64,000 nucleotides of DNA from Escherichia coli (lineage in GTDB: Bacteria; Pseudomonadota; Gammaproteobacteria; Enterobacterales; Enterobacteriaceae). The DNA is taken from assembly GCF_041248615.1 (NCBI RefSeq), contig NZ_CP158426.1; one strand, written 5' to 3'. The position numbers were made by a program. Below are positions 24,001-27,000 of this stretch, in pieces (the first letter of the stretch is position 1; each line of letters begins with the position of its first letter).

Positions 24001-27000
24001 TATCGACGTCAGATATTATTTATTATTCTCGGCACTAGAAGCACTTTGCAGATTTATTAAAAATGACTACTCCCCTGCCAAAACACCACAAATAATCACT
24101 CAGGTTTTAAAAGAATATGGTTTTAATGTCGAAAAAACAGGACATACATTAGCTCAAAGAAACATTATGCATTACTGCAAACTCCGTCACTCGCTGTTCC
24201 ACAATGGTAAATACATTGCCTATCTTGATGAAAAAAACTCAGATGGCAAAATTGAAATTCAAGATTACTCATCAAATTTGAATTTACTGGTGCCACTTGT
24301 ACTAATGAAATTCATAGGATTTGATGACAATTATATAAACTGGGACTCATGGATTGATAGGAATCCATTTATCAGTAAAAAGTAAACTAAATTTTATAAA
24401 TGTGGTTTTATTTATCTCTGTAACCAATTTAGCAAAGCATCCTGAATGACAGTTTCCACATCATCATTTACGCCTAGGAGACGACGCTCTGCGTAACGGA
24501 CCTCCGGTCCTCTTCGACTGATGCGATCACGCAGGCCGTAGTGATGAACGCGGGCAATGCGCTGCACCTGACCTTCAAACTGCACGCTGGCAGAATCGGC
24601 GCTGGCGGCAGTTTTCAGGTATTTTGTGGTGCGCAGCTTTGTAAACATCTGACGTTTGATGCGCCCCTTTTTGCTGCGTGCTGTTACCCGTCGCGGCTCA
24701 TAACTGCTGCCATCTGGATTGCGCTGCATCCTGATGTTCTGCTGCTGTGTCCGGCGCAGTTCCTGCGCCAGCTGGCGCATCATGCGACTTCTCGTGGCTG
24801 GTTCCAGATTCGCCAGCAAGGCACTCAACCAGTCGTCCACCTTCTGCAGTTCAGCCACGTTTCACCGTCCACATTTCTTCAGGTTCATCGGGTTCTGCTA
24901 CAGCTTCAACGCTCGACACACTGCCGTCAGTGCTGACCAGCACACGCTCCGTCAGTTGCAGGTTCAGGCTGATATCACAGACATCGTTGCGCAGAATATC
25001 CACCTCAAAGGTGAATAGTTTTTCCCGTAACGCCGGGTTATTGATGGCATCGGGCTGGTTATCCCTCAGCCACAGCAAAACCGGGGCCATCAGCAGATTC
25101 TGGTCGCCGCTGAAATCCTCAATCACCGCGTTCAGGGTGTAACGGTACTCCCACGACATGGAGCTGGCCCCCGTAGCAACCAGCGAACCGTTATCCACAA
25201 ACAGATGCAGTTTGTCCGGGTTATTGCGGACATAAGGCACCGCTTTATTGAGGGCGTGGCGCAGGGATTGTGGTTTGTTCACTGTTTCGCTCCTGACACG
25301 CAATAATCATGTCCACTTTGTCTGCACAGACCGCCCAGGCGGCCTCCGTTTCATCCAGCAATGCGTTCAGATCACCGTTAGTGCGCGGCGCTGCCTGCTC
25401 CAGCCGACACGGCGTCACTCGCGGACAACCACTGACGGTAAGCTGCACCTCCGGTGAGTGCCGGACGTTCCCGCAGCCGGATAATGTCAGCAGGCAAAGG
25501 AGTATCAGCCCAGCGGCGTAAATCCTCGTTCTCACGTTTCAGTTCCTCGATCCGGCGTTGTCGTTGTCTCAGCAGTGCGCTGGTCTGTTCTGCTTCGGCG
25601 TAGAGCCGCGCCTGCTCCCGATTATTGGTTTCAGCCAGAATGGACAGACCGATCAGCTGGCTGTTTTTCTTCGTCAGTTCTTGCGCTTTACTTTTCAGCG
25701 CCGTGCGCTGCGTTTCGATGGTGTGGCTGGCGCTGTTAAGCCGCCACGACTGCCAGCCCAGCGTAACGAGTGCCAGCGCCACCACTACTGCCAGCGCACG
25801 CGTCATAGTCCAGCTCCTTTAAGGCACCAGGCCATCTCCCGCGCACGGCGGTTATCCAGCCCCTGATTAAACACACCTTTTACATACACCCAGCGCGGCA
25901 ACTGTCGGCACGCATCCGCCCAGCGCCGCTGATTGAGCAATTTCACCAGCGTGGAACTGCAGGCATTGCCCGTACCCACGTTGAAGGCAAACGACACCGC
26001 AGCGTCATACACCTTCTGCGGCGGCTGTTGCTTCACACACCTTTCCAGCGCCCGCTCCACACGCAGCACGTTGGAGATCAGCCCTTCTGCTGCCTGTCGC
26101 TCCGTAATGGTTTTGCCGGGAATGACGCCCGACGTATTACCAATGCCGTCAGTCCAGACACCCGCGCTGCACTGATACGGCTGCAGGCGACAGCCTTCGT
26201 AATCGGCAATCAGTTTCAGCCCTTCCACGGAGGTGTGAAGCTGCTGAAAACCCGGCAGCATGGCAGCAATAGCCAGCACGGCCCCGACAAGGCAGCGTTT
26301 AACGATTGATGGATTCATAGTCCTCCCGCGAGATCTGCCCGTCGCGCAGAAGCTGGTAGGCTTTGTGTTTGTAGTACCAGTTGATAGCCAGCATCAGCAC
26401 ACCAATCATCAGGCCGCCCAGCGTTGAGGCATCCTTGATGGACAAATCGCCCAGCCAGGCCAGCACGACGGCGATGCAATACGTGATAAAGGCGCTGATT
26501 CGCTCAAGCGTCATAATTCAGTCCCATAGCTGGACGGTCTGCACGGTGGTGGTAGTCGGAATGTCCGGCAGCTCCACCTGCAGCCCGTGAGGTAAAAAGG
26601 GGCCGTATTCGGCAAGCCCCGGATTTGCCTTCAGTACCTGCTCCGTGACACCCTGCGTGCGCCCGTAATGACGCCAGCAAAGCGCGTCCACCGTGTCATA
26701 CTGATGCGCACGCACTTTCATCAGATAAGCTCCACTGTGCAGTGCGGCGCATCCTGCACCCGGCTGATGGCCCAGCGGGCATCACGCCACAAATCACCGC
26801 TTGCTTCCGCCAGTTCCTCGCCTCGCTTCACACCGGACGCCGTGGCGTCATAGTCCTGATAACGCTCGTTGAGCATGGCGCGTGCCCAGCAGTAAACCGC
26901 GTTGAAATAGTGCTGAATGCGCTCACTTTTGCCGTCCAGCTGTTCTGCCGGAACCTCTGCCAGCGAGGCATAGCCCAGCATCTGCTGGCGTCTGCGAAAC

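Follow-up and report, generated by a model that had tools for sequence, protein, structure and literature searches.

The DNA analysed here, a window of 64,000 nucleotides from Escherichia coli, was a 100% match to E. coli NRZ14408 (NZ_LT599825.1) and contains four lysis ORFs, all on the minus strand and all where the original prediction had placed them. They lie within a late capsid and tail operon with the gene order O-N-M-L-X-holin-endolysin-lysB-lysC-R-S. The genes of the cassette and its two neighbours are as follows:

26518..26721, minus strand: tail protein X, homologue of P2 gpX (PF05489, E 2e-34), directly upstream of the holin gene
26299..26514, minus strand: holin, 71 aa, ATG start, HP1 holin family (PF16080)
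25803..26318, minus strand: endolysin, 171 aa, ATG start after GGGAGG, GH24/T4-type lysozyme with a SAR-like N-terminal segment as putative signal-anchor
25378..25806, minus strand: lysB, i-spanin, 142 aa, ATG start after AAGGAG, equivalog of TIGR03495 (phage_LysB)
25245..25535, minus strand: lysC, o-spanin, 96 aa, GTG start after GAGGAA, equivalog of NF038368 (P2_Rz1)
24851..25282, minus strand: tail completion protein R (PF06891, E 4e-46; RefSeq coordinates), its 5' end overlapping the 3' end of lysC

The four lysis ORFs were intact and all had good ribosome-binding sites. Their naming as holin, endolysin, LysB and LysC was borne out by scores above the cut-offs of curated models, well outside what chance would give, and we regard the component identities as settled because of these matches and of the match to PDB 1XJT. 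The module is also complete for a Gram-negative host, as had been claimed, with holin, endolysin, i-spanin and o-spanin ORFs all present. What is presented here as observation is the identity of the genes, the families to which they belong, their signal and lipobox features, their architecture and their conservation. The cassette itself is ordinary and already known: its families are curated throughout, near-identical cassettes have been published, and the RefSeq annotation of NZ_LT599825.1 already includes an HP1 family phage holin, a lysozyme, lysB and lysC. Of 5,426 complete E. coli genomes about 1,037 carried it, and it also occurs in the isolated phages Cartapus, RE-2010, Fels-2 and KP12. 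As a discovery it is of little importance, and its practical value lies in annotation.

The ATG of the holin gene is located 3 nt past the gpX stop. Its product belongs to the HP1 family (PF16080, 36.7 bits against a gathering cut-off of 28.8) and matched the phrog_20 holin with E 2e-26. Two hydrophobic windows (residues ∼6–22 and ∼30–48) followed by a charged C-terminal tail make it a predicted class II holin with two TMDs, the first of which is not Gly/Ala-rich. A 71-aa two-TMD holin combined with a membrane-tethered lysozyme is also found in phage 21 (S21/R21), but the match of our holin to the S21 family (PF04971, P21 holin S; 23.2 bits, E 7e-5) was below the gathering score of 26 and a dual-start holin/antiholin motif was not present in its sequence, where Met1 is followed by the next Met only at residue 36 and the upstream ATG is out of frame. 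With a single-start holin and no lysA, the cassette contains no recognisable antiholin. Among 83 phage records, in a neighbour survey that reached down to 28% holin identity, the holin gene adjoined a gene for an endolysin, lysozyme or SAR endolysin in most of the annotated records listed. The size of the membrane lesion would have to be judged from characterised homologues, the sequence being compatible with pinholes as well as with large holes.

The endolysin gene has a 20-nt overlap with the holin gene and one of 4 nt (ATGA) with lysB. The protein scored 137 bits against PF00959, and its best solved relative was P1 Lyz (1XJT, E 7e-27), followed by R21 (3HDE) and RrrD (4ZPU). P1 Lyz (PDB 1XJT/1XJU), the prototype disulfide-isomerisation SAR endolysin, shares the GH24 fold family with our enzyme and is 38% identical to it. 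The 1XJT alignment begins at endolysin residue 12 and so runs into the N-terminal hydrophobic segment, and this homology supports the suggestion, made in the original prediction, that the segment may act as a signal-anchor. Two parts of the coding sequence bear on this point:

26247..26294, minus strand: putative SAR domain, endolysin codons 9–24, CLVGAVLAIAAMLPGF, hydrophobic, preceded by K7 R8 and including Cys9
26151..26198, minus strand: endolysin codons 41–56, EGCRLQPYQCSAGVWT, with the catalytic Glu41-8X-Cys50-5X-Thr56 triad and Cys43

In P1 Lyz the triad motif was found by regular expression as EGCRRDPYMCPAGVWT at residue 42, and the E-G-C-6X-C-5X-T spacing is identical in the two enzymes (E41/C43/C50/T56 in the window, E42/C44/C51/T57 in P1 Lyz), so that C43 aligns with C44, the caging Cys of P1 Lyz. 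Cys13, Cys44 and Cys51 of the P1 enzyme are reportedly the residues with roles in disulfide-isomerisation control, in work ascribed to Xu and colleagues in 2005. Both proteins also have a Cys in their N-terminal hydrophobic segment. This residue is located mid-helix in P1 Lyz (C13), whereas the conserved Cys9 of the window endolysin lies beside the basic n-region and does not fall in the same alignment column; moreover, the 11-residue insertion of P1 Lyz is missing from our protein. The N-terminal sequence KRCLVGAVLAIA was kept in the relatives examined. R21 has no regulatory cysteines, and Era103 has Asp where the catalytic Cys of our enzyme stands. The Glu-8X-Cys-5X-Thr motif of T4-type lysozymes has been defined previously (PMC3556154).

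On the Hessa scale and by Gly/Ala/Ser/Thr content, which we used in an attempt to tell SAR domains from ordinary TMDs, the segment of the endolysin scored like the TMDs of LysB and of the holin and like the signal of LysC; the mean apparent free energy per residue was 0.05 for the endolysin segment and 0.06 for the LysB TMD. Hydrophobicity was not discriminating, and the argument for SAR behaviour of the endolysin is therefore one entirely from homology. The same segment could be read as a cleavable Sec signal peptide, with the enzyme secreted, processed and restrained in some other way. Many signal peptides, like this segment, have a short core (here about 14–16 residues) with Pro-Gly after it, and the hydrophobicity of the segment is not unusually low. 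However, no good small-residue (-3/-1) site follows the core in PGFQQLHTSVEG, the conserved Cys9, needed by a P1-type mechanism, is inside the segment, and P1 Lyz and R21, the nearest homologues of the enzyme that have been characterised, keep uncleaved N-termini (PMC6116005), all of which makes processing of the protein quite unlikely. We favour a putative SAR endolysin of the P1 Lyz type, whose exit from the membrane and disulfide caging would be expected by analogy with the characterised homologues.

The cassette is very probably the lysis module of an intact-looking P2-like prophage (Peduoviridae, Cartapus/RE-2010/Fels-2-type) in NRZ14408. The prophage is inserted between ybjL and rcdA and, in the RefSeq annotation, extends from ogr to int, its late genes forming a full set. 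Two pseudogenes flagged by RefSeq in its tail-fibre region could be taken to indicate that the element is defective and the cassette an inert remnant, but these coincide with an intact 466-aa fibre ORF beside an invertase and are probably an annotation artefact of the invertible segment. Against decay there also stand the complete ogr-to-int gene complement, the four intact lysis ORFs with their ribosome-binding sites, and the 97.6% DNA identity of the cassette to that of the isolated Escherichia phage Cartapus; we consider a remnant very unlikely.

The late operon that carries the cassette is probably driven by an Ogr-dependent promoter, for which one element is the likely candidate:

29922..29939, no strand assigned: TGT-N12-ACA dyad between the divergent O and P genes

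In the late region of the prophage similar dyads were confined to this site and to two others, which lie upstream of V (23472) and FI (17415). Across the whole window the number of TGT-N12-ACA sites was not above chance, and only the placement of these three is suggestive. Scans for sigma-70 promoters and intrinsic terminators between 23300 and 30100 gave counts equal to the shuffled expectation, and the sigma-70 scan of this region gave no minus-strand promoter candidate inside the cassette. The promoter scan is consistent with read-through from an upstream late promoter, without proving it.

The module had been assigned to the P2 type as a whole. This description held for the spanins and for the location of the module, which is flanked by tail genes X and R; both are shared with the P2 lysis module (Y-K-lysA-lysB-lysC). 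It failed for the holin, the endolysin and lysA. The P2 holin, Y, belongs to class I, has three TMDs and comes from another Pfam family (PF04550; PMC3091744), unlike the two-TMD PF16080 holin of the window; a pairwise alignment of the two gave 28% identity over 54 aa (E 1e-4). The endolysin of P2, K, is unrelated and has no N-terminal anchor; in BLASTP it showed no significant similarity to the window endolysin, the best match having an E of 0.016 over 24 aa. P2 carries lysA, whereas a tblastn search of the whole window with three LysA proteins gave nothing better than E 0.5, and the stop codon of the endolysin gene and the start codon of lysB overlap (ATGA), which leaves no lysA between the two genes. 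The synteny of X, the lysis genes, R and S and the homologous LysB/LysC might still suggest a full P2-type module, with a large-hole holin, a soluble cytoplasmic endolysin and a hydrophobic N-terminus that is incidental. Such a module is extremely unlikely in view of these differences and of the homology of the endolysin, its N-terminal segment included, to the SAR endolysins P1 Lyz and R21. On the sequence evidence the P2 label applies to nothing but the spanins and the location of the genes; ‘P2-like’ lysis cassettes are mosaics in which spanins of the P2 type are combined with an HP1-type holin and a SAR endolysin of the P1 Lyz type. The holins of P1 itself are different (LydA/LydD).

The spanin genes account for the P2-like part of this mosaic. 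LysB scored 175.3 bits against TIGR03495 (cut-off 92.75), matched the phrog_89 Rz-like spanin, and was 36% identical to P2 LysB across 76 aa. It has an N-terminal TMD at residues ∼4–19 (a hydrophobic window preceded by R3), followed by a periplasmic helical/coiled-coil domain for which weak coiled-coil-type Pfam matches were obtained. No cysteine is present in LysB of the window, whereas P2 LysB has two. LysC scored 124.7 bits against NCBIfam NF038368 and 57.3 bits against PF23793 (LysC), each with a cut-off of 27, and from residue 1 it was 42% identical to P2 LysC (E 9e-26). Both LysC proteins are 96 aa long and have the same cysteine pattern (Cys21/37/43/70/80 in the window). The features that define the start and the signal of lysC are:

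25543..25548, minus strand: Shine-Dalgarno sequence GAGGAA of lysC, 7 nt upstream of the GTG and within the lysB coding sequence
25473..25484, minus strand: lipobox L18-S19-G20-C21 of LysC, recognised by a PS51257-like rule and the classic lipobox regular expression

The lipoprotein call was based on a PROSITE PS51257-style rule and on the expression [LVI][ASTVI][GAS]C, both of which matched LSGC at Cys21. The predicted lipobox LTLSGC (residues 16–21) thus passed formal scrutiny. It is preceded by an n-region rich in arginine (R2, R4) and a hydrophobic core at residues 5–20, and the +2 residue is Gly22 and not Asp. LysC is a putative outer-membrane lipoprotein with a predicted o-spanin role in lysis; the mature protein would be 76 aa long and contain 7 Pro and 4 periplasmic Cys. 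The RefSeq annotation starts lysC at a CTG (25493; 82 aa), by which the signal peptide is lost; the GTG at 25535 is to be preferred. An in-frame TGA two codons before this GTG rules out a longer ORF; in P2 the lysC start is ATG. The ORF, its GTG start, the Shine-Dalgarno sequence and the lipobox were kept in seven of seven relatives, down to 74% protein identity. Over seven cassettes the Shine-Dalgarno sequence was GAGGA(A/G) in six and GAAGAA in 813R9, and LSGC was invariant among the 7 relatives, with AGC at the equivalent position of P2 LysC. The idea that lysC is no gene but a chance alternative-frame ORF in lysB and R, prompted by its being unannotated or truncated in several phage records (Cartapus, RE-2010, Klebsiella phage ST13-OXA48phi12.1 and 813R9), is effectively refuted by the equivalog score, by the identity to P2 LysC, by the 7/7 conservation despite 19–27 substitutions of the overlap in the four more distant relatives, and by the documented bias of gene callers under which overlapped o-spanin genes are under-annotated (PMC6139136). 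As a genuine gene, lysC is another case of a mis-called o-spanin start, and here lies part of the annotation value of the cassette: in RefSeq the signal peptide is missing, and from some phage records the gene is left out.

The original prediction had also described lysC as embedded out of frame across the 3' end of lysB. The out-of-frame crossing was observed, but the gene is overlapped, not embedded. We tested the spanin class against the two-component, overlapped type (Summer 2007; Kongari 2018). The start of lysC is offset by 271 nt from that of lysB and is in the +1 frame; the two genes have 158 nt in common, and lysC then continues for 133 nt past the lysB stop, the last 38 nt being within gene R. 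An embedded o-spanin gene lies wholly within the i-spanin gene; here lysC ends at 25245 and the lysB stop is at 25378. The LysB TMD and helical domain, the LysC lipobox, the +1 start and the extension beyond the stop are those of an overlapped two-component spanin, a class for which P2 lysB/lysC is the prototype, as lambda Rz/Rz1 is for the embedded one (PMC6139136, PMC3556154). The P2 genes are arranged alike: lysC begins within lysB, in the +1 frame, and its 3' end overlaps R by 38 nt. The spanins of Fels-2 and RE-2010 have been catalogued as overlapped P2-family o-spanins (PMC6139136). The lambda pair, like that of the window, has two components and an o-spanin gene out of frame with its partner, but Rz1 is fully embedded, and the window spanins gave no significant family-level match to Rz/Rz1.

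These components suggest a course of lysis. The 171-aa lysozyme would be exported by Sec, and its N-terminal SAR segment, remaining uncleaved, would hold it at the inner membrane. There it would be inactive, since the catalytic Cys50 would be bonded to Cys43 in a disulfide of the P1 Lyz kind. The 71-aa two-TMD holin of the HP1 family would accumulate and trigger, causing the proton-motive force to collapse, upon which the SAR segment would leave the bilayer and Cys9 would isomerise the disulfide and free Cys50 for degradation of the murein. By then LysB, anchored in the inner membrane, and LysC, an outer-membrane lipoprotein acylated at Cys21, would already span the periplasm, and once the murein is gone they would disrupt the outer membrane, probably by fusion with the inner membrane. 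Both the SAR release and the spanin-mediated fusion are proposed by analogy with characterised homologues.

The whole arrangement recurs in other phages. Cartapus (Elveevirus), Salmonella phage RE-2010 and ST13-OXA48phi12.1 have the order X, holin, endolysin, lysB, lysC, R as in the window, with a 71-aa holin, a 171-aa Lyz-like endolysin, an overlapped lysC and no lysA, and they differ from it only by point substitutions and by a mosaic 5' part of lysB. The cassettes of Klebsiella phages KP12 and 4LV2017 and of Escherichia phage vB_EcoM-813R9 are all 95% identical to the window at the DNA level; in KP12 and 813R9 the holin is 97–100% and the endolysin 97% identical, and LysC of 813R9 is 98% identical. 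These three phages have an additional gene between endolysin and lysB, absent from the window, which encodes a LysA-like multi-TMD protein of ∼125 aa (NF038378, phrog_162). For KP12 a conserved SAR domain of the endolysin and an overlapped i/o-spanin pair have been described, and the endolysin was purified for lytic-activity tests (PMC9902359).

Two forms of the cassette, near-identical in other respects, exist in nature, with and without the LysA-like four-TMD protein. The LysA-like gene was found in about 784 complete E. coli genomes and the lysA-less junction of the window in about 232, which documents a presence/absence polymorphism of lysA that is common in E. coli prophages. A tentative and on balance doubtful reading is that LysA is the antiholin of the HP1-type holin, the window variant being a naturally ‘unbraked’ combination of holin and SAR endolysin. 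If this were true, the lysA-less form would have earlier or less tunable lysis timing, and the polymorphism would be a ready-made natural experiment on the role of LysA.

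The lysis cassette at 25245-26514 had been described in the original prediction as a complete Gram-negative module of the P2 type. An ORF listing over 23500-28500 and direct reading of the sequence gave four ORFs in a row on the minus strand, all exactly at their predicted coordinates. The upstream flank contains homologues of P2 head-completion gene L and tail gene X, and the downstream flank homologues of tail-completion genes R and S. These genes, and an ogr-like gene of the same prophage, are as follows:

26518-26721, homologue of P2 tail gene X, upstream flank of the cassette
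26299-26514, minus strand, holin gene (71 aa, ATG start)
25803-26318, minus strand, endolysin gene (171 aa, ATG start)
25378-25806, minus strand, lysB, i-spanin (142 aa, ATG start)
25245-25535, minus strand, lysC, o-spanin (96 aa, GTG start)
10192-10410, ogr-like gene

The gene junctions are tight: the holin gene shares 20 nt with the endolysin gene, endolysin and lysB have an ATGA in common, lysB and lysC overlap by 158 nt and lysC overlaps R by 38 nt. The module is complete, with all four proteins exceeding the cut-offs of curated models: PF16080 (HP1 holin family) for the holin (36.7 bits, cut-off 28.8), PF00959 for the endolysin (137 bits), TIGR03495 'Rz-like lysis system protein LysB' for LysB (175.3 bits, cut-off 92.75), and PF23793 (57.3 bits) and NF038368 'Rz1-like lysis system protein LysC' (124.7 bits, cut-off 27) for LysC. 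PHROGs assignments concurred for all four. The sequence itself shows which genes are present, what signals they carry and to which families they belong.

LysC had been predicted to carry a lipobox and to lie embedded, out of frame, across the 3' end of lysB. A scripted lipoprotein check, which would have refuted the prediction had no functional lipobox emerged, showed that it matches the classic lipobox [LVI][ASTVI][GAS]C as well as a rule in the style of PROSITE PS51257, with R2 and R4 in the n-region, a hydrophobic core at residues 5-20, the lipobox L18-S-G-C21 and G22 at +2; the mature protein has 76 aa, 7 Pro and 4 Cys. LysB has a single hydrophobic segment, at its N-terminus. The reading frame and the crossing of the lysB 3' end were also as predicted, but lysC is not embedded, as it extends 133 nt past the lysB stop into R. 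By its sequence the pair is a two-component spanin of the 'overlapped' class, whose prototype is P2 lysB/lysC, and not of the 'embedded' class, to which lambda Rz/Rz1 belongs (PMC6139136, PMC3556154, PMC3091744). In Kongari et al. (PMC6139136), Fels-2 and RE-2010 already appear under the P2 o-spanin and KS14 i-spanin families, and the cysteine counts here (none in the i-spanin, four in the o-spanin) lie inside their tabulated range.

We compared seven cassettes, those of the window, Cartapus, 813R9, RE-2010, Fels-2, ST13-OXA48phi12.1 and ST512-KPC3phi13.2. All seven have the lysC GTG start at one offset, 271 nt into lysB in the +1 frame, preceded by a GAGGA(A/G) Shine-Dalgarno (SD) sequence in six and by GAAGAA in 813R9. 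The lipobox LSGC was invariant, and Cys21/37/43/70/80 were conserved across the cassettes and common to P2. Since these features are conserved despite 19-27 substitutions within the lysB/lysC overlap in the four more distant relatives, a chance alternative-frame ORF was ruled out. RefSeq (WP_223229653.1) begins lysC at CTG 25493 (25245-25493, minus strand, 82 aa), just six residues ahead of the lipobox Cys, and this start therefore cannot make a signal peptide. Of the canonical starts, only the predicted GTG 25535 gives one; an in-frame TGA lies two codons before it. On sequence grounds it is the better start, with an SD (GAGGAA, 7 nt upstream), conservation in 7/7 cassettes and a match to the N-terminus of P2 LysC (MRTRIYAAG... 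versus MRTKIFAAG...; 42% identity from residue 1, E 9e-26). Several phage records have lysC truncated or missing, and omission or truncation of such genes is a documented annotation bias (PMC6139136).

The original interpretation was largely right, but besides the spanin class the term 'P2 type' needs correction, as it holds only for the spanins and the synteny. LysB is 36% identical to P2 LysB across its C-terminal half. In contrast, P2 Y belongs to a different family (PF04550, a class I holin that has three transmembrane domains (TMDs)) from the two-TMD HP1-family holin, with marginal pairwise similarity, and P2 K is unrelated to the endolysin. P2 also has a lysA-type membrane-protein gene between endolysin and lysB, and no lysA homologue was found across the entire 64-kb window. 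This gene is present in the close relatives 813R9, KP12, 4LV2017 and ST512-KPC3phi13.2 (~125 aa, NF038378) and missing from Cartapus, RE-2010 and ST13-OXA48phi12.1; Fels-2 has an apparently frameshifted membrane-protein remnant in the slot. In this presence/absence polymorphism, the lysA-less junction of the window lies between 25803 and 25806 (compared with L002 2059-2436). The adjacent 5' part of lysB is mosaic, with 58 differences from 813R9 in 271 nt and 3 in the next 158 nt.

The holin has two hydrophobic segments and a charged C-terminal tail; its gene has a single start, and therefore no antiholin is recognisable in the cassette. As to a possible pinholin role, it scored 23.2 bits against the P21 holin S family, under the cut-off of 26. 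Among 83 phage records, most of those listed with annotation have a gene of this holin family directly beside one annotated as endolysin, lysozyme or SAR (signal-arrest-release) endolysin, at holin identities as low as 28%.

The endolysin has one hydrophobic segment (residues 9-24, after K7 R8), which had been suggested as a possible signal-anchor. Its best solved relatives were P1 Lyz (1XJT, E 7e-27), then R21 and RrrD. The 1XJT alignment begins at residue 12, within the segment. SAR anchors are uncleaved, and their release is PMF-dependent (PMC6116005). Alignment with P1 Lyz and Era103 Lyz103 and a separate motif scan showed that E41-G-C43-6X-C50-5X-T56 corresponds to P1 E42/C44/C51/T57, whereas Era103 has Asp at the catalytic position. 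The hydrophobic segment includes Cys9, which the examined relatives share, although it falls in a different alignment column from P1 Cys13. A signal-anchor role is well supported by homology; composition alone did not separate the segment from an ordinary TMD. A 97%-identical endolysin of Klebsiella phage KP12, noted to have a P1-Lyz-like SAR domain, was purified for lytic-activity tests, and KP12 has the same overlapped spanin pair (PMC9902359). By analogy with characterised homologues, the Sec-exported endolysin would stay membrane-tethered and disulfide-caged until triggering of the holin depolarises the membrane; release of the SAR segment would follow, with Cys9 driving disulfide isomerisation, murein would be degraded and the LysB-LysC complex would disrupt the outer membrane.

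The cassette is already known and common. It was found in 1,037 of 5,426 complete E. coli genomes, ~784 of them with a lysA-type gene and ~232 with the lysA-less junction, and E. coli NRZ14408 (NZ_LT599825.1) matches the region at 100% identity, with the genes named 'HP1 family phage holin', 'lysozyme', lysB and lysC by PGAP. Flanked by ybjL and rcdA, the prophage extends from ogr at ~10192 to int at ~44362. A minus-strand scan detected no sigma-70-like promoter inside the cassette, and terminator-like matches were at background level. Ogr/Delta-box-like TGT-N12-ACA dyads (TGTAYSG...CACACA) lie at 17415-17432 (upstream of FI), 23472-23489 (upstream of V) and 29922-29939 (between O and P); late promoters activated by Ogr/Delta would be expected at just these places, ahead of the FI, V and O/P late operons. 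Such a placement agrees with the cassette being transcribed within the late O operon.

Elsewhere in the window, the slot that orf30 occupies in P2, from tail gene S to tail gene V, contains a 288-aa gene on the opposite strand (23519-24385, plus strand; mechanical ORF from 23471). The gene is AT-rich, with 33% GC where its flanks have 55-60%. It matches phrog_4373, a family of unknown function, with no match in Pfam, NCBIfam or PADLOC, and is likely to be a moron or an accessory gene. Two minus-strand genes lie in the interval from the portal gene to the DinI/replication genes: one encodes a RES-family NAD+ phosphorylase (32833-33987), the other a 630-aa P-loop NTPase (34350-36242) with a PADLOC match to the candidate defence family PDC-S49 (E 4e-156); the locus (32833-36242) looks like prophage-borne anti-phage cargo. 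Both strands of the tail-fibre region (17481-20999) carry alternative cassettes for fibre tips and assembly, and a Hin/Cin-type recombinase is encoded there too (17481-18047). RefSeq annotates two pseudogenes there ('integrase incomplete', 'tail protein incomplete'), yet one 466-aa fibre ORF (19599-20999) is intact, and the region probably represents a host-range segment that inverts, not decayed genes. In RefSeq, the host nitroreductase gene nfsA (6195-6906, minus strand) is marked as a pseudogene with a frameshift.
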